64,000 nt of DNA from Escherichia phage NHEP1, in the sequence record PQ511146.1; one strand, 5' to 3'. Numbering within the stretch: position 1 is the stretch's first letter; each line of letters starts with the position of its first letter. The notes below the pieces were generated by a model. That model had not been told where the DNA came from and ran no database searches. It saw nothing but the letters and a program-made list of their open reading frames with translations. Positions 19,816-36,210 of this stretch are shown piece by piece. Made by a program: the position numbers and the translations under genes.

Positions 19816-20157
19816 CTACTCAAGGTCTTCAGAGTCAAGCTCAAAAAGAATCAAACTGTGCATGCCTGCAGAGAGATCAACACACCCTGCAACAATAAGG
19901 GTTTGATAGTAAGGTTCAGCACCCTCAATATCTTCGTTAAAATCCACAACAAGGTAGTCACCTTTGTTAAAGGTGTATTTGTCCGATGTAAACGCAAAAC
20001 CTGCCCAGTCCCCTACTGCAGGATCTTTATCAGTCACCTTTGTTAGCAGTAGATCTTTTTCACGAGATCTTTTAGTAAAATCGTGAATCACAACATCCTT
20101 CTCTTCAGGAGTCGGATTGCCACACACGTAGTTAACGATATTTCTCCACAAACTCAT
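19816..20157 (-). CDS. hypothetical protein (113 aa)
   Basis: ATGA overlap with helicase gene. Confidence 0.55.
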   Translation of the reverse strand: MSLWRNIVNYVCGNPTPEEKDVVIHDFTKRSREKDLLLTKVTDKDPAVGDWAGFAFTSDKYTFNKGDYLVVDFNEDIEGAEPYYQTLIVAGCVDLSAGMHSLILFELDSEDLE

Positions 20158-21524
20158 ACGTCCCCCTTTTCTGCTCTAGTTTCAAAATCTTTCCTGACTT
20201 TCTCGTCTAAGCCAGGGAAAGTTGTATTATAAAACTCTACGACTCTCGGGTCAACAATAATATCCACCTCTCTTAATGGACGCAACAAGTTTATTCCTTG
20301 TATCGTCTTAACCCGACTCAAGGCAACATACGTCATTCCGGGAGAGAAAGCTCCGTTCTTTCCGAGGTCTAGGTTGTAACAATCTAACGTAAGTCCTTGA
20401 CTTTTATGCGATGTTACTGCGTACCCAGATTTCAAAGGAAGTTGCTCATAAGACCCGATCACAACCCTCTCTATGAACTTCTCCATCTTCCTTTCGGCAA
20501 TATTGTACCTCTGGGAAGGTTTGTACTCGTTATTCTCCCACAATCTCGGCTCAATTTCAACCTGTGTCCCGTCTTCCAGCTCAACCACCACAGACTTGGT
20601 CTTGAATTTTACCACTGTGGCGCGTGTCCCGTTGACATAGTACGGAACTTTATGTGTCGGGTCAACATCGTTTGAGGTTATCATAACCTTCATCCCTATC
20701 TTCAGCCTCATTTCCTGCTCCACAGGCAGTGTGGAGGGGAACTTACCTTTCATTTTACCAATGTAGGTCTTCTCTGGGGCCTTGATGGCATCATAGAAAC
20801 GTCTGTTCACCTCCTCTGCTTGCTTATTGGTGGCACAGATGGTCAAGGCATCTGTTGGGACACCACCATGATAGCAACGAGTGTTAAGCTCTGCTACAAC
20901 CTCTTTTATGCGACGACCTTCACGAACACAGTTCAACATTGTGGCGAAGCGAACAGATTCCTGACGGAACTGGTCTACTAATGCTATATTGTGAAGATTA
21001 AGATCCTCCCAAGATTTTGTATAGCAACACAGGTCTGTGTGGTAGAAGTTGAAGTAGGCTTCTTTCTCCATAGAAGAGACAACTGGGGGTGCTTGGTAGA
21101 AATCTCCAAACAATAGCACCTGAATGCCTCCGAAAGGTTTGTCATTTTTCCGAAGAAAGCGGAGTTTTCTATCCATCTCTATGAACTTGTCAGCACGGAT
21201 CATAGAGATTTCATCGATAATTAGGATGGTAAATGCCTTGCTTTTCAGAGGCTTTGCTGTTTTTGCCCTTATTGCTGTCCAGTCTGACTCCATGCTCACA
21301 CCTGCGGCAAGATCGAAAGTTCGGTGCGCTGTTGCTCCATTAACGTTTAAAGCGGCTACCCCTGTCGGGGCAACCGTTATGCAAGAGTCTCCATACATGG
21401 ACTGGATCATGTTGATAAGATATGTCTTCCCGGTTCCACCGGGTCCACTTACGAAGACATTCTCACCACTCATGATTGCAACAAGGGCAGCATCTGTGCC
21501 TACATCGTACTGCCCTTTTTCCAT
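20154..21524 (-). CDS. SF1B DNA helicase (Dda/RecD/Pif1-like)
   Basis: Walker A GPGGTGKT, Walker B IIDEISM, C-terminal TSHKSQGLTLD and YVALSRVK motifs. Confidence 0.85.
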   Translation of the reverse strand: MEKGQYDVGTDAALVAIMSGENVFVSGPGGTGKTYLINMIQSMYGDSCITVAPTGVAALNVNGATAHRTFDLAAGVSMESDWTAIRAKTAKPLKSKAFTILIIDEISMIRADKFIEMDRKLRFLRKNDKPFGGIQVLLFGDFYQAPPVVSSMEKEAYFNFYHTDLCCYTKSWEDLNLHNIALVDQFRQESVRFATMLNCVREGRRIKEVVAELNTRCYHGGVPTDALTICATNKQAEEVNRRFYDAIKAPEKTYIGKMKGKFPSTLPVEQEMRLKIGMKVMITSNDVDPTHKVPYYVNGTRATVVKFKTKSVVVELEDGTQVEIEPRLWENNEYKPSQRYNIAERKMEKFIERVVIGSYEQLPLKSGYAVTSHKSQGLTLDCYNLDLGKNGAFSPGMTYVALSRVKTIQGINLLRPLREVDIIVDPRVVEFYNTTFPGLDEKVRKDFETRAEKGDV

Positions 21525-25230: not shown

Positions 25231-25256
25231 ATAGAAAATCCCCGCCGAAGCGGGGT
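25231..25256 (-). terminator. rho-independent terminator (CCCCGC-UUCG-GCGGGG + U-run)
   Basis: 6-bp GC stem with UUCG loop followed by AUUUUCUAUUU on minus strand. Confidence 0.55.
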
Positions 25257-25268
25257 GTGTCTTAGAAA

Positions 25269-25649
25269 TTAATCGTAGTGTGCCAAAATCTCTCCATCGT
25301 TGCAAGTCCCCTCTACGAAGTTGTGAAGATTCATGCATTCATCTTGATAGAAGAATTTACCGCTTTTCAGCCGTAGACCAAACAACTCCGCATCTCCACG
25401 ATGGCAAGCCTCTACAAGTTCATAGATTTCATACGGTAACTCTCCATCGTCATGGAAGAACCCCGCTTTATCGTTGACATAGATGAAGAAATAGTCACTG
25501 CTGTCGCAAGCGTCCAGTATTTTAAACCAGATTTCATCCACATCTTTTTCTCGGATATCGATCACACAAGTGGAGCTGCATTCGTACTCCTTCTCCGGCT
25601 CCTCGGTCAATACCACCAAGTAGTTTCCCCGCTTACCTACTTTAGCCAT
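25269..25649 (-). CDS. hypothetical protein (126 aa)
   Basis: ATG start; operon context. Confidence 0.6.
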   Translation of the reverse strand: MAKVGKRGNYLVVLTEEPEKEYECSSTCVIDIREKDVDEIWFKILDACDSSDYFFIYVNDKAGFFHDDGELPYEIYELVEACHRGDAELFGLRLKSGKFFYQDECMNLHNFVEGTCNDGEILAHYD

Positions 25650-25658
25650 ACAACCTCC

Positions 25659-26843
25659 TCAAGCTTTAGCTAAAATGGCGCTAAACTCTTCACCAAACTC
25701 TTTTACAATCTTCATCAGGTTTGGGTATGCTTTGATCAGCTGAGCGACGATCTTGTCCCTGCCTTTACCAATAAGTAAGGCATTTCCTAAGGCGTTAGGT
25801 TTCATCATCGCCATAAAGACTGAGAATACAAAGTCTCGGTTCTCATCCTTGAAATTTTCCCAAAGGAAATCAAGGAAGTTTGCCACACAGCTGACAAGAT
25901 CTTCGTCGGAGATACTTGCATTTTCCATCATATTACGAATAGCGATACAACCTTCTGACCCCAGAATCCACAAGATGTCTGGCTGCTTAGGACCTACATA
26001 TTCTTTGCAGCCTCCTGCCATAATCCGACCGATTTCTGGCAAGTTTCGTTTCTTGGTGTGGTAGGTCCAAATTTCTACCGCTGCAGTGTGACCAATTGCA
26101 CCTTGTAGAAGGACACGGGCCATAGCGTCAGAAATAATACCGCTGTCAAAATCGTGCAGGATGTCAGATGCAGCAACCCAAGATCGCGGTGTGGCAAAAG
26201 ATGGACAATTAATCTCAGCCATGGCCTCATAATTATCAATGGCTGATGGGACTCTTTTCAGATATCCAATTACAGAGGAGTGCACCCCATTAAGGAATGC
26301 ATAGTCCTCAATAAACACCTCTGCACTGCTTGTAACTTCTACAATGATAAAGCGGTTAGCTAGAGGAGCTTCGAGCGCCGAAAGAACAGCACCGTCTGTA
26401 GCACGGTTACCTGCAGCTACAAAAACAGAGCCCTTAGGAAATGCATAGGTGCCGCACTTGTGGTCGAGCATAATTTGCATTGCAACCTTCTGCAGGTAGT
26501 TATCTGCATGAGTAAGCTCGTCTAGAAAGATAATTCCGCTCCAGTCCGGATCTGCAGGCCAAAATTCTGGAATTGCAAACACTGTACGTGTAGTCCCATC
26601 CGACTCTACAGGGATAGGTAGCCCAGATAAGTCAGCAGGGTCTTTATCTGACAGTCGCACGTCAACAAGGTTGTCATCTCGCTCACCGAACATATTATCA
26701 GCGATCTGCTTCATCACCTGACTTTTACCCACACCCATTGGTCCCAAAATTAGGACAGATCGGCTATGACGTTGGGCAAACTGAATAATGGCTGGCAACT
26801 CACGGACAGTGATTTGACCACTTTCGAATACGTTTCTTGACAT
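25659..26843 (-). CDS. MoxR-like AAA+ ATPase
   Basis: Walker A GPMGVGKS, Walker B IFLDELTHAD, sensor AAGNRATD; 394 aa. Confidence 0.8.
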   Translation of the reverse strand: MSRNVFESGQITVRELPAIIQFAQRHSRSVLILGPMGVGKSQVMKQIADNMFGERDDNLVDVRLSDKDPADLSGLPIPVESDGTTRTVFAIPEFWPADPDWSGIIFLDELTHADNYLQKVAMQIMLDHKCGTYAFPKGSVFVAAGNRATDGAVLSALEAPLANRFIIVEVTSSAEVFIEDYAFLNGVHSSVIGYLKRVPSAIDNYEAMAEINCPSFATPRSWVAASDILHDFDSGIISDAMARVLLQGAIGHTAAVEIWTYHTKKRNLPEIGRIMAGGCKEYVGPKQPDILWILGSEGCIAIRNMMENASISDEDLVSCVANFLDFLWENFKDENRDFVFSVFMAMMKPNALGNALLIGKGRDKIVAQLIKAYPNLMKIVKEFGEEFSAILAKA

Positions 26844-27112
26844 TAGTAAAAGTCCTCTACTTGTGTGTAAGTGTTTTCAAAGTTTTCCAAAACAGATGTC
26901 ACATCGGATCTGTCAATATCGTACACAACTTCCCAGTTGTATGCAACCCTTTCTGCTGTTGCTTCTTCGGGACTTAACCGCCTACTGGGGTGAAAGAATG
27001 TTGGAGTGCACTTTCTTAGCTGTTTCCCGATTTTCCCATAACAATACCTGTGGATAATTTTGTCAAAATTTAACTCTTTTTCTGCACAAAGTTCATGTTT
27101 CTGGTATAGCAT
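26843..27112 (-). CDS. hypothetical protein (89 aa)
   Basis: ATG after AAAAGAG; track GTG at 27145. Confidence 0.5.
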   Translation of the reverse strand: MLYQKHELCAEKELNFDKIIHRYCYGKIGKQLRKCTPTFFHPSRRLSPEEATAERVAYNWEVVYDIDRSDVTSVLENFENTYTQVEDFY

Positions 27113-27151
27113 GTTTATTACTCTTTTAAGTGGCCTCCTTGCCACTACCTG

Positions 27152-27532
27152 CTAGAATGCAGTTCGAATCCAAACAAGGTTTTTATCTGCCCAATCATAA
27201 AGGCAAGTCATTGCACTGTTGAATTGCTCGCATGGTGGATAATCCTCTTCCATTCGGCGCATACCAGAACCTTGAGGGAAAAGACTCATTGCTGCAAACC
27301 ACGAATCGTAGTCATCCACAGTGTCGAAGTAGTATACAACATCCTCCAATTCAGGGTCGAATTTTAAATTATCAGGATCCAGCAGCTCAGGAAACTTGGC
27401 ACGTAACTTGCCAGCTACGATACTTGCCAGCTCGCTAACATGCTTGTTGTCCCAATCTACCAGTTTCCCGTCTTCATCGATGCGTCCTAGCCACTGTTCA
27501 TGGAGATCAACTGTTGTCTTCCACTGTGCCAT
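27152..27532 (-). CDS. hypothetical acidic protein (126 aa)
   Basis: ATG start; operon context. Confidence 0.6.
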   Translation of the reverse strand: MAQWKTTVDLHEQWLGRIDEDGKLVDWDNKHVSELASIVAGKLRAKFPELLDPDNLKFDPELEDVVYYFDTVDDYDSWFAAMSLFPQGSGMRRMEEDYPPCEQFNSAMTCLYDWADKNLVWIRTAF

Positions 27533-27534
27533 TA

Positions 27535-27792
27535 TCAGTCTACCTCTTCTTCCCGTTGCAGCTCAAGATACCCATAGGTCTGGATATCTTCAAGGGTGTG
27601 AAACTCCCCGTCAGCAGCCAAGGCGCGAACAACTTGGCGCAAAACTTTATGAGGGACTTCATCCAGCCCTAGATTCAGTGCAGGAAACACCTTATCTAAG
27701 TCAACAAAATAAACGAACTGTAGTTCACCAGCTTCAAAAGGTGTATCTTCAATAAACATCTTCTCGGCATTGGTCAAGATCTGCACTTTCAT
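27535..27792 (-). CDS. hypothetical protein (85 aa)
   Basis: tightly packed, 1-nt overlap. Confidence 0.55.
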   Translation of the reverse strand: MKVQILTNAEKMFIEDTPFEAGELQFVYFVDLDKVFPALNLGLDEVPHKVLRQVVRALAADGEFHTLEDIQTYGYLELQREEEVD

Positions 27793-28148
27793 TATTCTAC
27801 CCCCTCTTCTTTTTCTTCAGCATTAGTTTCAGTGCTACCCCACTCTGGAGTTTCCACCTCGATAGTAAACTCACGCACTACACGGTAATTGCCCATGAAG
27901 CGCTCCACTTCTTCAAGGCTTATGGAGAGGCCATTGGCAACCAAGTCTGCAGCACCCTTCTCTACCAGGTAGTCCAGATTGGCTTCCAAGGCTTCAGGCT
28001 CAAACCCTGTCAATGCAATCATATAACCTTCCCCTTCATCAGGGAGGGCAATACAGCCCAACTGATTTTCTTTAAAAAAGCAGTGACCATCATTATTGAT
28101 TGGGTGCTCATTGCAGTAAATAGCTGCACGATAAGTAACTTTAGACAT
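27792..28148 (-). CDS. hypothetical protein (118 aa)
   Basis: operon context. Confidence 0.55.
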   Translation of the reverse strand: MSKVTYRAAIYCNEHPINNDGHCFFKENQLGCIALPDEGEGYMIALTGFEPEALEANLDYLVEKGAADLVANGLSISLEEVERFMGNYRVVREFTIEVETPEWGSTETNAEEKEEGVE

Positions 28149-28160
28149 TGATAGGCCTCC

Positions 28161-28439
28161 TTAGGCAACTGTCATTTTACATTCTTTGAATTTTAGCACA
28201 AGACGGTGATTGTGTCTAGTGTCTAAAAAGATTTTTTCAACCATCAGGCACACGGTGTAACCGTCCATCTTATTGACAACAAAATCTCCAGGGTAAGGGA
28301 GAATGTCACCTGGACTGGGGAAACATAGCCCACTCAAGAAGGCATCGTCGGTGGTGGATTTAATGGATTTCCACACACTGTCTGCCTGAATATTTTCACC
28401 CACATAATATACACTACCACATGCCTTCATCATAGTCAA
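28161..28439 (-). CDS. hypothetical protein (92 aa)
   Basis: ATGA overlap with upstream gene. Confidence 0.55.
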   Translation of the reverse strand: MTMMKACGSVYYVGENIQADSVWKSIKSTTDDAFLSGLCFPSPGDILPYPGDFVVNKMDGYTVCLMVEKIFLDTRHNHRLVLKFKECKMTVA

Positions 28440-29335
28440 ATCTCCGCGTAAATTAAACTGGAATCAGTATACTTCTTTAGTGGGTAAATATCCTGTCCAT
28501 AGATGCCGTCATTAAACACCTCATCTACCCAAAGGCTACACTTATATCCCATCATCTCTAAAACACCCATCTCTTCTTCGGTAAACTTATCACCGCTCTT
28601 GCAAGATGTCAATACCTCATTCTGTACTCTTGCCACCTCGAAGCGGTTATTGGCAATATCGCTATTAGCGATCAAATACTCACCCAAAGGGTGTGCGGCA
28701 TTAAAGATGCACAGTGGACGGTTGACGTAATAGTCTCCAGGTGTATAAAAATTATTGAGGTCTTTCACTAGAACATTCTTATCAGTCACTTCATTCATAA
28801 CATCATGCATATCGCACATCTTTATATGTTTGAGGATTCCATCCCCCATCACAAAATAAAAACTTGCTGAAACACTTTCGGCATAGATCTTACTAGATCC
28901 GTTGTAGTTGTATTTTACTCGGATGCTAACGGGGGTTTTTCCTGTCGCGTTAGCCATCATCCAAAGAAATGGCAGCTCATACTTCTCCTCTGAGGAAACA
29001 AAAGGTGAAGTTGCCAGAGATCGGAAACCTCCAGAGAAGTTGAAAGTTACAGAACCGCTCCGGCGGTATGATACTGCGTATTCCACTTTTATATCAACAT
29101 ATCCGTTGGAGTAAGTATGCCCTCCATTATCAAGGTATGTCCACTTATCGGACCCAGATACCAACCTCCGCTCAATTACCTTCATCACTACAGGGATTAG
29201 CGGATTAGTACAAACCGATTTTGAAGTAGCTTTATCATCCAAAGCCTCGTAAATTGCAGAAAGGATATCACCTGCTGAGAGATTGGTTGTGATATCTTGT
29301 TTCCACCTGGTGCTAAAACTGTTAAGATTTGCCAT
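28436..29335 (-). CDS. hypothetical protein (299 aa), first gene of the long minus-strand operon
   Basis: ATG with AGGAGC SD directly downstream of promoter 29376..29404. Confidence 0.65.
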   Translation of the reverse strand: MANLNSFSTRWKQDITTNLSAGDILSAIYEALDDKATSKSVCTNPLIPVVMKVIERRLVSGSDKWTYLDNGGHTYSNGYVDIKVEYAVSYRRSGSVTFNFSGGFRSLATSPFVSSEEKYELPFLWMMANATGKTPVSIRVKYNYNGSSKIYAESVSASFYFVMGDGILKHIKMCDMHDVMNEVTDKNVLVKDLNNFYTPGDYYVNRPLCIFNAAHPLGEYLIANSDIANNRFEVARVQNEVLTSCKSGDKFTEEEMGVLEMMGYKCSLWVDEVFNDGIYGQDIYPLKKYTDSSLIYAEI

Positions 29336-29375
29336 GAGTAAGTGCTCCTATGTTAGTTTTCTTTTGAATGGGTGC

Positions 29376-29404
29376 ACTATATCGTGGATTTAGAGTAAAG
29401 TCAA
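29376..29404 (-). promoter_or_regulatory. sigma70-like promoter (TTGACT-17-TATAGT), divergent partner
   Basis: hexamers seen in the intergenic strand-switch region. Confidence 0.55.
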
Positions 29405-29417
29405 CACGTTTTTCAGG

Positions 29418-29446
29418 TTGACATCTTCTCAGGCACTTGGTAAGAT
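29418..29446 (+). promoter_or_regulatory. sigma70-like promoter (TTGACA-17-TAAGAT), divergent partner
   Basis: the track TTG 'start' at 29418 is the -35 hexamer; real ATG is at 29478. Confidence 0.55.
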
Positions 29447-29477
29447 TTCTCCACCCACAGAGAACAAGAGACAACTC

Positions 29478-30467
29478 ATGAATCTTGAAAAATATTATAC
29501 ACCAGAAGAGTTAGAGCGCTTGCTCAAAAAATACAGACGCAAACAGAATAACGCACGGAAACGGGATATAGAGTTCAACCTGTCATGGGAAGAATATCTC
29601 CTATTTGGTAAAAAACTTTTAGGAGAGGGAGTATGCGACTATACCCTTATACCTTTCGACATGCACACAGATGAAAACGGACTGGGAAATCCTTTCTACC
29701 CATCTCTGGAGCGGATAGATGATGAAGGTCCTTATGCGGTTGACAATTGTTGTGTGGTGGGATTGAGATGCAACTCCCTAAAGGACTGCCTGGTAGATAA
29801 AAAGACCGCAGTCTTGATTAAAGACAAAACTGATCGAAAAATTGTCCAGCAGATGATGCTCCACCTGAGCGAAGAGCGTATGGAGAAATTGAAAGGTGAT
29901 TACACTTTTGAAGATTTCATCTTGCAATATGGAACGGAAGAGGATAAACTAGCACTCTTTGACGAAGAATGGGAGGAAGATATGTCACCGATGCAGGATT
30001 TTAAAAACTTCATGGCTAATCGTGGAGCCAACAAGCACATTTCTGACATTGTAAACGAGCCTGTAGTAGAGGAGATTGGAGAGATGACGCAACAGGCTTA
30101 CGAAGAGGAAAAAGAGCCTCAAGTGGTCGAAGAAGAGCTTACAGAAGAGGTTCCTGCACTGCCTGACGATGTTGAGATTGCCAAAGCTTACACTTTCTAT
30201 TGCCAGACGTTCTACGATGCAGGTATGAAAGTTGATCTGTCATTCAGCCAGTTTAAGAGCACATACATTCGAAAATGTTGTGCTTTAACTGGTGAACGTC
30301 TCGGTGCCGGACTTAAACCCCTATTAGTTACCGACTGGAACAAAGGTTTCACCAAAGGTAACTTCATGGTAGTATCTCCAATCATGGAGAAGGCTATGAC
30401 AGACCTTATGAAGACCACTCGCATGACAATGACCGAGTTGGCTGGTATTTTCAAGCACGTTAAATAA
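29478..30467 (+). CDS. hypothetical protein, possible HNH-like nuclease (330 aa)
   Basis: ATG 8 nt after AAGAG; F.LSWEEY...C.YT and SLERIDDEG...DNCCVVGLRCNSLK resemble HNH_3 / endonuclease VII-type motifs, with R in place of the catalytic H. Confidence 0.55.
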   Translation: MNLEKYYTPEELERLLKKYRRKQNNARKRDIEFNLSWEEYLLFGKKLLGEGVCDYTLIPFDMHTDENGLGNPFYPSLERIDDEGPYAVDNCCVVGLRCNSLKDCLVDKKTAVLIKDKTDRKIVQQMMLHLSEERMEKLKGDYTFEDFILQYGTEEDKLALFDEEWEEDMSPMQDFKNFMANRGANKHISDIVNEPVVEEIGEMTQQAYEEEKEPQVVEEELTEEVPALPDDVEIAKAYTFYCQTFYDAGMKVDLSFSQFKSTYIRKCCALTGERLGAGLKPLLVTDWNKGFTKGNFMVVSPIMEKAMTDLMKTTRMTMTELAGIFKHVK

Positions 30468-30471
30468 TGAC

Positions 30472-30488
30472 AGGGGCCATTGGCCCCT
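30472..30488 (+). promoter_or_regulatory. intergenic hairpin GGGGCC-ATT-GGCCCC (possible attenuator)
   Basis: near-copy of the bidirectional terminator stem at 36187 but without a clean U-run. Confidence 0.3.
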
Positions 30489-30500
30489 TCTGGAGTTTTA

Positions 30501-31961
30501 ATGGATAGCAGAAGTTCAGAAATCATTACCGCACAAAAAGATGATGCCTTGCGAATGCTGCAGGCCGCTCGCATGTACCTTCTTGAAAAGCTGCCGTTTT
30601 ATGGCACACTGTTGTCAGGGTTGCAGTTCGTAGAAAACCACACATGGTGCTCCACTATGGCAACAGACCATAAACGCATCTACTACAGCCCTGAGTTCAT
30701 TATGGGGTTGGCAGATGAGCGTAAAACCATTCTTAAAGCATCTCTGACTGACAAGCAGTTTGAGATGGCTGAAGTTTTCTATTCCCCAAAATCTGTGAAA
30801 GAGGTGGCCTTTCTTCTGTCACATGAGGTGGGGCATATTATCTGTGATCATCTGGTCCGTGGTAAAAGCTTTGAGCCGGAACTGTTCAATATTGCTTGTG
30901 ATCACGTTATCAACACAGGTCTTGTGGTTGACTTTAGCAAGCCTCCTTGTGTTTTCTTCCCGAAGGGGAAAAGCACTGAGTTCGTAAAAGGTAAGCCTTT
31001 TGGCTTCTTAGCTAATTGCTACTGCGACATGAAGTTTCATGGATGGATTGCGGAGAACGTCTATGCAGTTCTTGATAAACAAAGAGATCAGAATGGCGGT
31101 AAAAGTAAGAACGGTAAAGGTGAGAACTCCCAAGGAGATAAACGACAAACCGATGATCACATGAGCGGGAACGGTGGCACTAGTGATGATCTTGGAAAGG
31201 CTATGGGGTATGATCAGCCGCAACCAGTAATCAGTCAATCGGATAAAGATCAGGCCATGCAGGACTCTGGTGACATGTTGGAAGCAGCAATGCAAGCTTC
31301 AGGAGGTCGTTGCCCCGAGGCGGTGCGCGAGTTTGTCAAAAACAGAGGCAAGCCTGTAATCAATTATATAGATATTATTAAGCAACGTATGTTATCTAAA
31401 AGAAAGGCTGAGTTAACCTACAGAAAACCTGGTCGCCGATCTGGGTCTTTGACCACCACAATGCGAAAAGTTGGAGCTATAAACAAGAATCAACACGTTA
31501 TTGTTCCTGGTCGTAATCCGGAAAACACTATAGATATTGTAGTGGCTTTAGACGTTTCTGGGTCGATCTCACAAAGAACTTTAAAGAAAATGTTCAATGA
31601 GATCACCGGGTTGTGCAATTTGTATAAAGAGTTTAAGGTTACGATGTTCTGTTGGTCAACCGAGGTTGGAGAGGTTAAAGTATACACTCGCGGTAACATC
31701 GATGAGATGATCAACTATGAGGTCCACTCAACATGGGGCACAACAGCCGCCTGCGTGTTCGAGTATCTTGATGCTAACATACCGAATGCAAAAGATGTCA
31801 TCGTCCTTACCGACCTCTACTTTGAGCATAACTTTGAACAAAAGGCTGTTGACAACAAGTGGAAAAAGTACGATACTTTATGGGTTCTCACCGAAGGGTA
31901 TAATAAAAATTATATCCCGAGCTTTGGGAAAACTGTGGAATTAATCGAGTACGCTAAGTAA
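30501..31961 (+). CDS. DUF2201-type putative metallopeptidase + VWA domain protein
   Basis: N-terminal TMATDHKRIYYSPEF, HEVGHIICDH (HExxH) and NIACDHVIN; C-terminal VWA with MIDAS-like DVSGS; ATG after GGAG (track TTG at 30480). Confidence 0.8.
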   Translation: MDSRSSEIITAQKDDALRMLQAARMYLLEKLPFYGTLLSGLQFVENHTWCSTMATDHKRIYYSPEFIMGLADERKTILKASLTDKQFEMAEVFYSPKSVKEVAFLLSHEVGHIICDHLVRGKSFEPELFNIACDHVINTGLVVDFSKPPCVFFPKGKSTEFVKGKPFGFLANCYCDMKFHGWIAENVYAVLDKQRDQNGGKSKNGKGENSQGDKRQTDDHMSGNGGTSDDLGKAMGYDQPQPVISQSDKDQAMQDSGDMLEAAMQASGGRCPEAVREFVKNRGKPVINYIDIIKQRMLSKRKAELTYRKPGRRSGSLTTTMRKVGAINKNQHVIVPGRNPENTIDIVVALDVSGSISQRTLKKMFNEITGLCNLYKEFKVTMFCWSTEVGEVKVYTRGNIDEMINYEVHSTWGTTAACVFEYLDANIPNAKDVIVLTDLYFEHNFEQKAVDNKWKKYDTLWVLTEGYNKNYIPSFGKTVELIEYAK

Positions 31962-31976
31962 GAGAGGATGGTATTT

Positions 31977-32234
31977 ATGGCAACAGAGGTAGTAATTAAA
32001 GCTGAACGCCCAGTTAAAAAAGCTATCAACACGTTCCCTGTAGGAACCATTGTGAGCATGATTACAGAGTCAGGCCGTGTATCTACACTGCTAATCGTGA
32101 AATCTGCATGCTCATCTTGTGTGTGGGCATACGATCTTGACGAGAAAGAACTGAAAGATTTTGTCGGGGAGCTGAAAGCAACAGAGCTTGACGCTCGTAT
32201 CGAAGTATTTGGTGAAACTATGAAGGAAGAGTAA
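31977..32234 (+). CDS. hypothetical protein (85 aa)
   Basis: second ATG, 9 nt after GAGAGG; first ATG at 31968 abuts the SD. Confidence 0.5.
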   Translation: MATEVVIKAERPVKKAINTFPVGTIVSMITESGRVSTLLIVKSACSSCVWAYDLDEKELKDFVGELKATELDARIEVFGETMKEE

Positions 32235-32497
32235 TGACTACAAAAATCACTATTGCAGAACCGAAAGCTAACACGCAACCTATCGAAAAGTTTAAATGCG
32301 GCGAGGTGGTAACATTTACACCAGATAATGAAGATGCTAAGATTTTTGCCATGGTAACAGCCGAGTGGATGTGTGACAATACCACACAGGTGCTGCGTTT
32401 TGACACCTATCTTACAGATGAAATCAGGAACGACAAGATCGTGACTGGTGTGGATACTGAGATCATTTTCTACAAGAGCTTTTTAGAGGGTTTCTGA
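32234..32497 (+). CDS. hypothetical protein (87 aa)
   Basis: TAATG overlap with upstream gene. Confidence 0.55.
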   Translation: MTTKITIAEPKANTQPIEKFKCGEVVTFTPDNEDAKIFAMVTAEWMCDNTTQVLRFDTYLTDEIRNDKIVTGVDTEIIFYKSFLEGF

Positions 32498-32498
32498 T

Positions 32499-32732
32499 AT
32501 GGCAAAAATTCGTAAATTATCCAGCAATCAGGTTGTGAAAGACTTTGAATCTGGAGAGATTCTGTATGTTCGTGATGCAGATGATGAAGGTGAAGATCTT
32601 GTTATGCTGGTAGGGCACGCTGAAGACGGATGCATCCAGGCTGTTTTTCTTGAAACAGCTGTGGTACACTGGATAGAGCTGGACCTGAAAGCACGAAAAC
32701 CTAAAGCAGAAATCATTATTTACGAAGATTGA
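32499..32732 (+). CDS. hypothetical protein (77 aa)
   Basis: ATG 8 nt after GAGGG. Confidence 0.55.
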   Translation: MAKIRKLSSNQVVKDFESGEILYVRDADDEGEDLVMLVGHAEDGCIQAVFLETAVVHWIELDLKARKPKAEIIIYED

Positions 32733-32748
32733 CAAAAAGGAGAGAGCC

Positions 32749-33198
32749 GTGTTGAGCAAACGTGAATGCGACAGCATTAGTCTGAATTCCTATAAGAAAC
32801 AATGGTTTGGGGTAGAAGTTTGCCGACTGCGGCTAGGCTCCTACTTGAACTTCGTCTATTATGAGAGTGACAGCCGTATCGTCTCTTATGAAGTGTTCTA
32901 CACTAAGAATACATTCGAGCTGAGACGTAAGGTGGATGGCGGGAGATCTACCGCCCAGAATAATTGGGAAACTATTCTACCTCCAGATGTTATAGGAAGC
33001 CCCCTGAATGTATCTGAAGATGAAAATCTTATGGTTCATGCTATGATGGGACTTGACAGCTTAGAGCTGGCGATCTATGATATGTCTATCGAAGCAGTTA
33101 AGCTGGACTACATCGAAAACACTTTAGAGGAAGGTATCAAGAAGTTTCTCGGTGAGAAATTGAAAGCCCACTTTCATAAGGAGCTATATCTGTTATGA
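32749..33198 (+). CDS. hypothetical protein (149 aa)
   Basis: GTG after AAAGGAGAGAG. Confidence 0.55.
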   Translation: MLSKRECDSISLNSYKKQWFGVEVCRLRLGSYLNFVYYESDSRIVSYEVFYTKNTFELRRKVDGGRSTAQNNWETILPPDVIGSPLNVSEDENLMVHAMMGLDSLELAIYDMSIEAVKLDYIENTLEEGIKKFLGEKLKAHFHKELYLL

Positions 33199-33440
33199 AG
33201 ACCCGTAAAGAACGTAACAAGATTTTACCTGGCGCTCTCGAACACATGATGAAGTGCAGATCTATCTGGCACTCTGCCAAGGAGGGGCAGCATGTGGTCG
33301 TGGTTAGTGATAATGCCAACCCATTCGGTGATTATGTCACCATGATGACTCCATACATCCGCGACGGTGTTGTGGAAGTGGTTCCTTATAACGGTCTGCA
33401 TGAGAGGCATTTTGAGAGCACTTTGCTAGTGGAGCTATAA
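33195..33440 (+). CDS. hypothetical protein (81 aa)
   Basis: ATGA overlap with upstream gene. Confidence 0.5.
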   Translation: MKTRKERNKILPGALEHMMKCRSIWHSAKEGQHVVVVSDNANPFGDYVTMMTPYIRDGVVEVVPYNGLHERHFESTLLVEL

Positions 33441-33442
33441 TC

Positions 33443-34009
33443 ATGGCGGTCAATGTGGCTTACAACACAGGAAAGCTTGACAGAGACATTGGGTGTCTTG
33501 TCCTTTCAGATACAGAGGAGTATTGGGGTTATGGGTTGCTGTCAGACCCACACCCGAGCAACCTTGTATCAACAGTGCTATATCGCTACGACCCTGTACC
33601 AACGGTACACGACAAAGACATTCACGACCTTCGGATCAAGTGTCTGGAAGATCTTCTGAACAATGGCTGCAACGATCTGCGGGTAGCCAAGGAGAAGCTT
33701 ACAAACATTCACAAAGAGGAAGTGATGAGCACCCTCAGTAAGAGATCAGTGCACAAAAAGATGATGCTGAACTTTGCAATGGGTATCTACATGGATGGGT
33801 ATAAGGGAGGGGATCCGATCCTCAAGCTTCGCTGCCCAACACTGTGGGAAAGAGTGGTTGACAGTAAGGACGGTACTGCCCTGCTAGAACTCCACACTGC
33901 AGGTTGGATTTGGCGGTATGTAGACGGATACCCTCTGTGGGCATGTGGGCCCGGTGAGTTTGTTGACAGACCTAGCGCGGTAGTGGATTTGCTATTGCAG
34001 TTTGAATAA
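33443..34009 (+). CDS. hypothetical protein (188 aa)
   Basis: ATG 8 nt after GGAG. Confidence 0.55.
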   Translation: MAVNVAYNTGKLDRDIGCLVLSDTEEYWGYGLLSDPHPSNLVSTVLYRYDPVPTVHDKDIHDLRIKCLEDLLNNGCNDLRVAKEKLTNIHKEEVMSTLSKRSVHKKMMLNFAMGIYMDGYKGGDPILKLRCPTLWERVVDSKDGTALLELHTAGWIWRYVDGYPLWACGPGEFVDRPSAVVDLLLQFE

Positions 34010-34065
34010 AAGGTGAGTTATAAAGCATTCATACACCTATCAACAATACAACAAGAGAGACTGAG

Positions 34066-34341
34066 ATGACGAAAGAAGAAGCTGACGTATTAGACTTTGC
34101 ACTAGAGGCTACGCAAGAGGCTCTAGTGTTAGCTTGGAAAATGAACCAACGTGCTGCAGAATGCAACCGCCGAATCAATGAGATCCTGGGTATGTCTATG
34201 TATGATTTCACCATGCATGCTGGAGAGATTCCTGAATTAACTGCTGAGATGAATGATCTTGACAATAAAATTAATATCATTCTGAAGACAGCAGAAACAA
34301 CTCACCAAACCGCCCGTAAATTTATCAACGAGAAGGTGTGA
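34066..34341 (+). CDS. hypothetical protein (91 aa)
   Basis: ATG after AAGAGAGA. Confidence 0.5.
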   Translation: MTKEEADVLDFALEATQEALVLAWKMNQRAAECNRRINEILGMSMYDFTMHAGEIPELTAEMNDLDNKINIILKTAETTHQTARKFINEKV

Positions 34342-34343
34342 AT

Positions 34344-34817
34344 ATGGACTACAGCTACTGCGGAGAAGAAGTACCTTTTAACTACAGCAATCTCGCCACG
34401 AGTAATCCATATGAGACTCGTCACGGCACACACATCATTGCTATTGACTTTGATGGAACGTTTAATGCGAGCCCTTTCATCTTCTCCCGCCTTATTAAGG
34501 ACCTGAAGAAGGAAGGGTGGACAGTCTATCTTGTGACTTTCCGATTCATCACTCAAGACAACGTGGACATCGAATACTGGCGCAAGGAGTTAGATGTTGG
34601 AGTGTTTTATACTGGAGGCGTTCAGAAGGCCGCTTATCTGGCGCAGTTTGATATCTACCCAGACATCTGGGTTGATGATTCTCCAGCTTGCATTCCGGCT
34701 AAGAATCAGTTAGAGTTTGCAATGAAGGAGATTGAGTATAAGTCTGACGCTAAGCGTAACGGATGGCCCTTTATTATTGAAGATTACCCAGATCCTGAAC
34801 CGGAGAAAGAACCATGA
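34344..34817 (+). CDS. HAD-superfamily phosphatase (putative nucleotidase)
   Basis: motif I IAIDFDGT, motif II LVTFR, motif IV IWVDDSP; ATG 7 nt after GAGAAGG. Confidence 0.55.
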   Translation: MDYSYCGEEVPFNYSNLATSNPYETRHGTHIIAIDFDGTFNASPFIFSRLIKDLKKEGWTVYLVTFRFITQDNVDIEYWRKELDVGVFYTGGVQKAAYLAQFDIYPDIWVDDSPACIPAKNQLEFAMKEIEYKSDAKRNGWPFIIEDYPDPEPEKEP

Positions 34818-34984
34818 AACGAAGATACCATTACGTGATGTGGAAGTTATATCATGGTGCTGCTAAGGCTTATCGAGCCGTGTTTGGTAATGACAATCAC
34901 TGCATTATGTTACACCTTACATCCATTGAGCATCACAATGAGTGGATTCGTGCAATCGTAATAGGTGACAAAGACTTTAAGTAA
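34814..34984 (+). CDS. small hypothetical protein (56 aa, not in ORF track)
   Basis: ATGA overlap with upstream stop suggests translational coupling; below the track length cutoff. Confidence 0.35.
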   Translation: MKRRYHYVMWKLYHGAAKAYRAVFGNDNHCIMLHLTSIEHHNEWIRAIVIGDKDFK

Positions 34985-35014
34985 AGTATGGCTTTCGAGA
35001 TGGAGACTGACTAA

Positions 35015-35398
35015 ATGTGCAAGTGTAAATCTTATAATTGGAAAGTGAAAGGTGCCAAGCATCCAAATGTTATCGTTGATGTGCCTAAAAAGCTCCGTGA
35101 CGGCAAAAAACGTGTGTGCCTTGATAAGTGCATGGCTAAACCTATCATGAGCCTATGGGCGGCAGGATTGAAGACCTTAAACTGCTGCTGTGGTCATAAC
35201 AAACGCCCACCAAGCATTATCATACCGGAGAATGCAGATCCTAAAGCATATGCCAAGATACTGACCCGCTACTACAGCACCTTCTTGATTGGAAAATGGT
35301 GCCACGATGAACTCCAGTGGTGGATAGCGTATGGCGGTCTTGGTGCTGCTTTAGGTTTCCCAGCTTTATCAGATAAATCTGTCAAGGTATCGTCGTAA
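35015..35398 (+). CDS. Cys-rich hypothetical protein (127 aa)
   Basis: ATG 8 nt after GGAGA; CxCx...CLDKC...CCCGH. Confidence 0.5.
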   Translation: MCKCKSYNWKVKGAKHPNVIVDVPKKLRDGKKRVCLDKCMAKPIMSLWAAGLKTLNCCCGHNKRPPSIIIPENADPKAYAKILTRYYSTFLIGKWCHDELQWWIAYGGLGAALGFPALSDKSVKVSS

Positions 35399-35502
35399 CC
35401 TATTTTAAGGCCTCAAACGAGGCCTATGCCTTCATAAACTACCTGCCTCTGTGTGATTACCCTTCTAAATAAAATACCCTCTCAAATTGCTTAAAATTAA
35501 GC

Positions 35503-35531
35503 TTGACATCAACACCAGATTTATATATGAT
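35503..35531 (+). promoter_or_regulatory. sigma70-like promoter (TTGACA-17-TATGAT)
   Basis: intergenic; consensus -35, 5/6 -10; the track TTG start at 35487 lies upstream of it. Confidence 0.55.
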
Positions 35532-35561
35532 TATCTCATCAACCAAGCAGAGGAGATTGTC

Positions 35562-35969
35562 ATGGATAATCTTGCGAGTGTGAACGTCGAAATTGTTAAA
35601 CTAAAGTTCTTGGGCTTTCGAGACCCTAATTCTCTAACAGCTATACTGATGGATACCCACTTCACACCTGGGAAAGAGTACACTGCCTTCCGTTATATTT
35701 GTGGAGATCACGAATCGGCCTATAGTGTGAATACAAACCTCGGCGAGGGATATTTCATCAAAGATATCACAGATCACTTGTGGGGTATGTGGGAATTGGT
35801 GGAAGAAGAGAATAAATCCCTTCCCAAAGAGATTTGGGTGCACACCTTCCACACAGGTAAGTTCGGAGGTACGGAACATAAGTCTATCCACTATGAAGAA
35901 GAAAGTGCCATCAAACAACAAGCTGTGCTTGGTGGATCTGTAGAAAAATTTGTTAAATGCGAGGACTGA
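35562..35969 (+). CDS. hypothetical protein (135 aa)
   Basis: ATG 5 nt after AGGAGA. Confidence 0.55.
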   Translation: MDNLASVNVEIVKLKFLGFRDPNSLTAILMDTHFTPGKEYTAFRYICGDHESAYSVNTNLGEGYFIKDITDHLWGMWELVEEENKSLPKEIWVHTFHTGKFGGTEHKSIHYEEESAIKQQAVLGGSVEKFVKCED

Positions 35970-35972
35970 GAA

Positions 35973-36173
35973 ATGGCTGATTTTTGTAAAGATTGCTCTG
36001 AAGAGTTGTTTGGCTTTGACTGCAAAGATTTGGAAGGTCTGATCACTGAGGATCAGTGGAAGGAAGGCTATGCAGCACCTGTTATTTGTGAAGGTTGTGG
36101 CTATACCTATGTTGACCATAAAGGTAAGCGCGTCAAGCCGTCTGAAGATGGGGCATGTTGGGAGTATTACTAA
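35973..36173 (+). CDS. zinc-ribbon protein (66 aa)
   Basis: ATG 7 nt after GAGGA; CKDC...CEGC. Confidence 0.5.
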   Translation: MADFCKDCSEELFGFDCKDLEGLITEDQWKEGYAAPVICEGCGYTYVDHKGKRVKPSEDGACWEYY

Positions 36174-36176
36174 CTA

Positions 36177-36210
36177 TAAAAAGAAAGGGGCCATTTGGCC
36201 CCTTTTTTAT
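36177..36210. terminator. bidirectional rho-independent terminator (GGGGCC-AUUU-GGCCCC flanked by A-run and U-run)
   Basis: lies between the convergent plus module (ends 36173) and minus structural operon (ends 36221). Confidence 0.7.

Follow-up and report, generated by a model that had tools for sequence, protein, structure and literature searches.

Gene content of the locus

The stretch of DNA analysed here, referred to as the window, comprises 64 kb of the genome of Escherichia phage NHEP1, a Vequintavirus (rV5-like) phage. It contains two genes that lie on opposite strands and 3,657 bp apart. One of them encodes a MoxR-class AAA+ ATPase, and the other a protein in which a zincin-like domain precedes a von Willebrand factor A (VWA) domain, called here the VWA-peptidase (Table 1). 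The relationship between these two products and the role that they may have against host defences are the subject of this study. Both open reading frames (ORFs) are found at the positions and on the strands given in a first-pass annotation made from the sequence alone, and all the motifs quoted there are in place, including a TMATD in the VWA-peptidase.

The 6.3-kb region that holds the two genes is matched at 93-96.5% identity by more than 110 genomes of Vequintavirus (rV5/FV3-like) phages of E. coli. In addition, 16 records named 'Campylobacter phage', with C. jejuni as the host, are ~93% identical to positions 25659-31961, a host assignment that looks doubtful. Much of the content of the region has been described before. 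The ATPase gene carries the label "MoxR ATPase" in GenBank records of Vequintavirus relatives, and in the rV5 paper of 2013 the product of gene 4 is given as "MoxR-ATPase" and that of gene 12 as a DUF2201_N protein; the paper also identifies gp11 (29478-30467 in the window) as an Srd homologue and reports both a bidirectional promoter for genes 10/11 and a bidirectional terminator between genes 26 and 27. Both the published literature and GenBank annotation thus cover the genes, their domains, and the bidirectional promoter, and the sequence finding adds little to them. The useful additions are the cognate partnership of the two proteins and the involvement of the VWA-peptidase that is implicated by published transposon data.

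The ATPase

The motifs expected of an AAA+ enzyme (Walker A, Walker B, AGNR, PLANRF, and ATPRS) are invariant in an alignment of the ATPase with 29 homologues that extends down to 29% identity. In profile searches, the protein taken alone fell below every Pfam and NCBIfam threshold; it scored 16.9 against a curated cut-off of 22 for AAA_5, and 15.5 against 27 for bpMoxR. Its relatives of ~360 amino acids (aa), which are ~34% identical to it and are found at an E-value of ~1e-44, do match AAA_3, AAA_5, and bpMoxR, and 11 homologues at ~31-32% identity match AAA_5 (best E-value 2.4e-09) and AAA_3 (best E-value 1.2e-08). Membership of the MoxR family is thus transitive, because it is established through the relatives found at ~1e-44 and not through the protein's own profile score.

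The fold predicted for the ATPase points in the same direction. In an AlphaFold2 (AF2) model with a predicted local distance difference test score (pLDDT) of 83.6, a hairpin inserts ahead of the Walker B strand and another ahead of sensor 1. The helix-2 insert and the pre-sensor-1 beta-hairpins are both found, and the closest fold likeness is to MoxR, dynein, and midasin modules. CbbQ and NorQ are the nearest solved structural relatives, while a search of solved structures by sequence returned P-loop-level matches to Clp and p97 only. Judged from its sequence and modelled fold, the product of 25659-26843 is an AAA+ ATPase of the MoxR/AAA_5 lineage. Consequently, the family assignment by profile that had been proposed for both proteins stands directly for the VWA-peptidase, as described next, and for the ATPase it stands through its relatives and AF2 fold, its own scores being below the cut-offs.

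The VWA-peptidase

The VWA-peptidase contains DUF2201_N followed by DUF2201 in the N-to-C direction, both above their gathering scores: 101.1 bits against PF13203 (cut-off 23.2, residues 88-314) and 43.8 bits against PF09967 (cut-off 26.4, residues 346-481). Conservation was assessed in 27 relatives, down to 24% identity, and in a set of 13 sequences that includes the N4-like G7C gp25, RaK2, Thermus phiFa, and a cyanophage. H108, H112, R120, N130, A132, D134, N138, D351, S353, S355, T414, and D438 are invariant in the family, and E109 is conserved in at least 90% of sequences. The HExxH and the metal ion-dependent adhesion site (MIDAS) residues thus stand at conserved positions in both sets. 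The C-terminal domain has a VWA fold in the AF2 model (pLDDT 81.5), and a complete MIDAS (DxSxS...T...D) sits on it.

The N-terminal domain resembles known peptidases more distantly. Its HExxH aligns with that of M48 peptidases, HtpX, and the minigluzincin MJ1213, with a weak E-value of 0.04, and the top 11 PDB matches of a profile of this domain are all M48, minigluzincin, HtpX, Ste24, or BepA peptidases, with E-values that are likewise weak (0.04-0.5). A search of solved structures by sequence with the VWA-peptidase gave no match, and the PADLOC defence models and NCBIfam names returned nothing meaningful. PHROG 1314, the family of the VWA-peptidase, is labelled 'HNH endonuclease', and many GenBank records call the protein 'HNH endonuclease' or 'anti-sigma factor'; these labels are probably annotation errors.

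Table 1. Positions of the genes, motifs, and candidate regulatory signals in the window
Feature	Position	Strand	Remarks
MoxR-class AAA+ ATPase gene, 394 aa	25659..26843	-	Orthologue of rV5 gp4, bas54_0063, N4 gp24
Walker A, GPMGVGKS	26721..26744	-	G37, G39, K40, S41 invariant
Walker B, IIFLDE (D108, E109)	26517..26534	-	Invariant
AGNR, sensor-1 region (N146, R147)	26403..26414	-	Invariant; role assigned by analogy
PLANRF, putative arginine finger (R164)	26349..26366	-	Invariant; role assigned by analogy
ATPRS, putative sensor 2 (R220)	26181..26195	-	Invariant; role assigned by analogy
DUF2201_N zincin-like + DUF2201 VWA gene, 486 aa	30501..31961	+	Orthologue of rV5 gp12, bas54_0055, N4 gp25; Pfam; PHROG 1314
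HEVGH, metal-binding/catalytic motif (H108, E109, H112)	30822..30836	+	Both His invariant, Glu at least 90%
NIACDHVIN	30888..30914	+	N130, A132, D134, N138 invariant; D134 candidate third metal ligand
Low-complexity disordered linker, residues 199-229	31095..31187	+	AF2 pLDDT <50
VWA domain, residues ~340-486	31518..31958	+	
MIDAS motif DVSGS (D351, S353, S355)	31551..31565	+	Invariant
MIDAS threonine T414	31740..31742	+	Invariant
MIDAS aspartate D438	31812..31814	+	Invariant
Sigma70-like promoter of - arm, TTGACT-17-TATAGT	29376..29404	-	10/12 consensus positions
Sigma70-like promoter of + arm, TTGACA-17-TAAGAT, extended -10 TG	29418..29446	+	10/12 consensus positions
Six small genes (rV5 genes 10-5) between - promoter and ATPase gene	26843..29335	-	Function not assigned
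126-aa T5.083-like gene, downstream of ATPase	25269..25649	-	Last of - arm unit
GC hairpin then AUUUUCUA, terminator-like end of - arm unit	25240..25255	-	Fold -14 kcal/mol, z -3.75
Srd-like 'anti-sigma' gene (rV5 gp11)	29478..30467	+	First of + arm; PHROG 3118, 4592, 1400; rV5 paper
GC hairpin between Srd-like and VWA genes	30472..30488	+	Fold -14 kcal/mol, z -1.33; Shine-Dalgarno GGAG just downstream
Strong bidirectional intrinsic terminator, end of + arm	36184..36205	.	Fold -19.7 kcal/mol, z -4.05

Cognate pairing and spread of the family

Despite their split in the window, the ATPase and the VWA-peptidase are, by comparative genomics, cognate partners, because the genes for the two are adjacent elsewhere. 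Among the IMG/VR loci, which were recovered with the ATPase alignment, as were those of GTDB, the VWA gene is directly downstream of the ATPase gene and on the same strand in 68 of 80 (68 of the 70 informative ones), with gaps of up to ~520 bp. Two of the remaining loci are split and 10 are uninformative; in nine of these 10, no more than 184 nt lie between the ATPase gene and the end of the contig. One IMG/VR contig of 4,004 bp (L047) contains ~1 kb downstream of the ATPase gene in which a VWA gene is not detectable; either an inserted gene or a true loss of the partner is possible. The scan of GTDB species representatives yielded contigs from metagenome-assembled genomes only, all phage-derived in appearance, and the VWA gene is adjacent in nine of ten of these loci (nine of nine informative). 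The nearest relatives of the ATPase beyond the Vequintavirinae are encoded directly upstream of a DUF2201_N + DUF2201 gene, as seen on phage contigs with lengths up to ~155 kb and in a jumbo phage of 578 kb, and the pairing on neighbouring genes is also seen in RaK2 and G7C. Thus, in these viral and phage-like loci, adjacency is normal for the two families and the split is unusual, as supposed in the first-pass annotation.

The co-occurrence survey that had been suggested for related phages gives a similar picture. In a tblastn search of 50,697 GenBank phage records, the VWA-peptidase was found in 682 and the ATPase in 821, and the counts per genus are near-equal for most genera: 213 and 215 for Escherichia, 104 and 108 for Pseudomonas, and 26 each for Pectobacterium. 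The exceptions are Vibrio (56 against 104) and Salmonella (24 against 35). The two proteins also diverge in parallel, with identities to the window ATPase and VWA-peptidase of 50% and 46%, respectively, in Seunavirus 4MG, and of 35% for both in Certrevirus CB7.

The family is overwhelmingly phage-borne, including N4 gp24/gp25, the RaK2-like jumbo phages, and hundreds of IMG/VR contigs, and in most phages the pair is located among the early/middle genes. Since the genes are normally adjacent in those phages, and since they and their promoter were annotated for rV5 in 2013, the special, phage-adapted novelty that had been attributed to the pair was not sustained. The N4 genes gp24 (AAA ATPase) and gp25 (vWFA) belong to a core set of 14 genes in N4-like phages (Schitoviridae); they are transcribed in the middle class and their function is unassigned. 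Profile hidden Markov models of the window families match G7C gp24 at 152 bits and gp25 at 160 bits, and both the HExxH and the MIDAS are conserved. In N4-like phages, however, the two genes are neighbours on one strand, in some cases separated by an HNH homing endonuclease gene, whereas in the window they are on opposite strands. Homologous proteins with the same architecture, MoxR plus a VWA protein with a metallopeptidase domain, are found in the group 2.2 jumbo phages (Iyer et al. 2021, Viruses 13:63), where the genes are, in contrast to the window, adjacent; the gp24-like and gp25-like proteins of RaK2 match the window-family profiles at 276 and 340 bits.

Origin of the split

The split arrangement is seen in the window and all close Vequintavirus relatives, in Seunavirus 4MG, and in a Mydovirus-like Klebsiella phage contig (54% identity for the ATPase and 44% for the VWA-peptidase). 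In Certrevirus CB7, which also belongs to the Vequintavirinae, the MoxR, HNH endonuclease, and DUF2201 genes are all on one strand. The ATPase and VWA genes are adjacent in a 146-kb relative (L012) and in Aeromonas phage 4L372D, while in phiFa and MinM2 they are separated by three to five genes but share a strand. Because the split is confined to the Vequintavirus/Seunavirus/Mydovirus-like lineage and the arrangement is adjacent in Certrevirus and the outgroups, the split is, on this distribution of gene orders, a derived, lineage-specific rearrangement. It is a gene-order variant, with no sign that function was altered by it.

As for how the rearrangement occurred, the SleB gene (on the - strand) and the VWA gene (on the + strand) keep their relative place and orientation in both arrangements, and only the ATPase gene switches side and strand. 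The simplest route is probably an inversion of the segment from SleB to the VWA gene, including the bidirectional promoter. The genes located between SleB, the ATPase, and the VWA gene have no detectable similarity to Certrevirus CB7, even at E < 5. HNH homing endonucleases sit at the gp24/gp25 junction in G7C and CB7, and this junction is, therefore, a plausible break-prone site; a link between these endonucleases and the split is speculative.

Expression of the two arms

A gap of 142 bp separates the - arm, which reaches to 29335, from the + arm, which begins at 29478. Within this gap, at 29376-29446, two sigma70-like promoters are placed back to back, in agreement with the divergent arrangement that had been proposed. 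Their -35 hexamers are separated by 13 bp, and each promoter is conserved in Vequintavirus phages, that of the - arm in Bas49, Bas54, and Bas55. The - arm would comprise six small genes, the ATPase gene, one more gene, and a hairpin terminator at 25240-25255, and the + arm the Srd-like gene, the VWA gene, 13 further small ORFs, and the terminator at 36184-36205. No convincing terminator was found between either promoter and the ATPase or VWA gene. The hairpin at 30472-30488 was considered as a terminator that could uncouple the VWA gene from its promoter and was rejected, as its z score resembles that of shuffled sequence and it is not followed by a clean U-tract.

Given the back-to-back promoters and the lack of an intervening terminator, co-expression is a simpler reading than the temporal uncoupling proposed in the first-pass annotation. 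We infer that both genes are probably driven from the same ~140-bp control region and co-expressed early. On the - arm, a TAATG at 26841-26845, in which the stop codon of the upstream 89/100-aa gene overlaps the start codon of the ATPase gene, suggests that translation of the ATPase is coupled to that of the upstream gene. The product of this upstream gene is itself a putative 'ATPase' according to its label in PHROG 13164.

The whole divergent unit (25240-36205) is bracketed by hairpin terminators, and almost all of it consists of small genes to which no function has been assigned. Together with the dispensability on K-12 of the orthologues bas54_0045 to bas54_0064, this content fits an accessory early region for host takeover or anti-defence.

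Phenotypes of the orthologues in phage Bas54

Experimental data for the pair come from the HIDEN-SEQ preprint (10.1101/2025.11.20.689424), in which the Vequintavirus model is Bas54, that is, phage MaxBurger. The window ATPase shares 99.2% identity with the product of bas54_0063, and the VWA-peptidase 99.0% with that of bas54_0055, and the neighbourhood of the two genes is the same; in effect, the Bas54 factor that acts against DS-28 is the same gene as the window ATPase. On K-12, insertions were recovered at 60 of 64 TA sites in bas54_0063 and at 81 of 86 in bas54_0055, both of which are non-essential, as is every gene from bas54_0045 to bas54_0068 in the table passages covered.

The outcome is different on the uropathogenic strain CFE311. 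Here, mutants of bas54_0063 vanish, with a log2 fold change of -7.23 and an adjusted p reported as 0.00000. Mutants of bas54_0055 are also depleted, with a log2 fold change of -2.20, or 4.6-fold (p 0.0009, q 0.009), while the Srd-like bas54_0056 and all other neighbours, including the orthologues of the six small genes of the - arm, are unaffected. Phages with a clean deletion of bas54_0063 or of bas54_0140 show a specific sensitivity to cloned DS-28, a defence system of CFE311 that the literature describes as a small, plasmid-associated, uncharacterised family of two genes. Of the three candidate roles named in the first-pass annotation, counter-defence is thereby backed by experiment in the case of the ATPase. 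The VWA-peptidase has a weaker transposon signal only, which appears in a supplementary table; bas54_0055 is not discussed in the preprint.

The product of bas54_0140 (L096 8211-8510) has 99 aa. It gave no match to the PADLOC models, and a tblastn search of the 64-kb window did not find it. It could be a second adaptor or a substrate-recognition factor for the ATPase.

A proposed two-component machine for counter-defence

The pair most likely acts as an ATP-driven remodelling or proteolytic counter-defence machine. A fuller version of this proposal, namely that the ATPase and the VWA-peptidase form one cognate machine that is co-expressed early, needed against DS-28, and dispensable on K-12, is one in which our confidence slightly exceeds our doubt. 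The mechanism can be sketched by analogy with CbbQ-CbbO (a Rubisco activase) and NorQ-NorD (iron insertion into cNOR), which are cellular MoxR/VWA remodelling pairs. By this analogy, the ATPase would assemble as a hexamer on which one VWA-peptidase would dock. The metal of the MIDAS would then grip an acidic residue on a target protein, which would be remodelled through ATP hydrolysis and might be cut by the M48-like HExxH zincin domain of the adaptor itself. Candidates for the target are a component of DS-28 and a host factor required for DS-28 to fire. The cellular pairs differ from that of the window in that their adaptors lack a peptidase domain and their substrates are metabolic enzymes, and CbbQ and NorQ are ~18-20% identical to the window ATPase. 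A similar principle operates in eukaryotic Rea1/Midasin, which is among the structural matches and in which an AAA_5-type motor is combined with a MIDAS domain that grips the substrate for its ATP-driven removal; in contrast to the phage pair, it is a single giant polypeptide without a peptidase domain and works in ribosome biogenesis.

Several observations weigh against this proposal. In CFE311, disruption of the VWA gene has a far weaker effect (~4.6-fold depletion) than disruption of the ATPase gene, whose mutants are lost completely. The second gene that the preprint finds to be co-required is bas54_0140, which lies outside the window and is not the VWA-peptidase, and the deletions challenged with cloned DS-28 cover 0063 and 0140, not the VWA gene. 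No interaction, ATPase, or peptidase assay has been reported for any member of the family. With respect to expression, the promoters of the two arms are consensus matches, and no transcriptome for the Vequintavirus group was found in the literature. The inversion model has three anchor genes only (SleB, the ATPase, and the VWA gene). Finally, there is a discrepancy in the source of the transposon values: in Extended Data Table 8, the logged command of a sheet with the header 'Data S6 resampling_K-12_vs_CFE303' has the CFE311 library (B54_2_311 wig) as its experimental data. The same 'CFE303' header lines recur in a later part of this file, so that label and content disagree.

Alternative explanations

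The main rival holds that the partners are functionally uncoupled: the ATPase would have been redeployed with others, for instance bas54_0140, against DS-28, the VWA-peptidase would have a separate or residual role, and the split would reflect relaxed coupling. This would agree with the persistence of the split across ~50% protein divergence, with the unequal depletion in CFE311 (-7.23 against -2.20), and with the preprint's naming of 0063 and 0140, and not 0055, as the DS-28 counter-defence genes. Nevertheless, the VWA-peptidase is still significantly depleted on that host while its neighbours are unaffected, every one of its catalytic and MIDAS residues is still invariant where the genes are split, the divergence of the two proteins is parallel, and one promoter region is common to both arms. 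Taken together, we regard uncoupling as unlikely, though deserving of serious consideration.

A role in virion assembly, in which the pair would be a chaperone and maturation protease that assembles or processes structural proteins, has been proposed for the same domain pair in the group 2.2 jumbo phages. The MoxR-vWA chaperone of the Acidianus two-tailed virus (ATV), reported to be required for tail assembly, was cited there as a precedent (Iyer et al. 2021). In addition, a 49.5-kDa 'ATPase', possibly the MoxR homologue, is present in the virion mass-spectrometry list of phAPEC6. By contrast, the saturating insertions tolerated on K-12 indicate that neither gene is needed to make infectious virions, and on this point the Vequintavirus transposon data disfavour the role proposed for the jumbo phages. 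Both genes belong to an early-type unit with sigma70-like promoters, far from the structural genes, and N4 gp24/gp25 are middle genes located beside nucleotide-metabolism genes. Moreover, the rV5 gene table marks no mass-spectrometry evidence in the virion for gp4 or gp12. The transposon phenotypes, the early-type location, and the rV5 virion table therefore favour counter-defence over virion assembly, which we consider quite improbable.

Slightly less probable still is a chaperone for cofactor insertion or enzyme maturation that would serve a phage or host metalloenzyme such as ribonucleotide reductase, in the manner of NorQD (iron), CbbQO (Rubisco), CobST, or BchID: CbbQ and NorQ are the nearest solved structures, and thymidylate synthase, dCTP deaminase, or nuclease genes often neighbour the pair in other phages, but the invariant HExxH peptidase-like domain would be left unexplained, and genes that are needed on a particular host but dispensable on K-12 suggest a target that varies between hosts, for example immunity.

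Implications for the gp24/gp25 module

If the counter-defence proposal is extended beyond Bas54, the gp24/gp25 module might serve more generally as an ATP-powered protease or disassemblase for counter-defence, in which a MoxR ring with its MIDAS adaptor would seize bacterial immune proteins (DS-28 in E. coli) and unfold or cut them. This generalization is tentative, and we hold it to be doubtful. If it were true, this would be the first description of an anti-defence machine of phages that is driven by an AAA+ motor, and the place of the pair in the core of N4-like phages, as well as its occurrence in rV5-like and many jumbo phages, would be explained. Pairs of the gp24/gp25 type are among the most widely conserved phage gene pairs without an assigned function. 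The cognate split partners, the anti-DS-28 phenotype of the ATPase, and the weaker phenotype of its partner offer a cheap experimental entry to this function.

Other genes in the window

Two further genes on the - strand deserve mention. The first (28436-29335, 299 aa) is widely annotated as 'alpha 1-3 fucosyltransferase'; it has no Pfam match, and the only PHROG family that it matches is one without a known function. Its orthologue in Bas54 is non-essential and has no phenotype in CFE311. The second (20154-21524) encodes a DNA helicase, whose Bas54 orthologue, bas54_0068, is likewise non-essential on K-12. In CFE311, however, the HIDEN-SEQ table shows this gene to be strongly conditionally essential, with a log2 fold change of -6.32 and an adjusted p reported as 0.00000, an effect that the main text of the preprint does not discuss.

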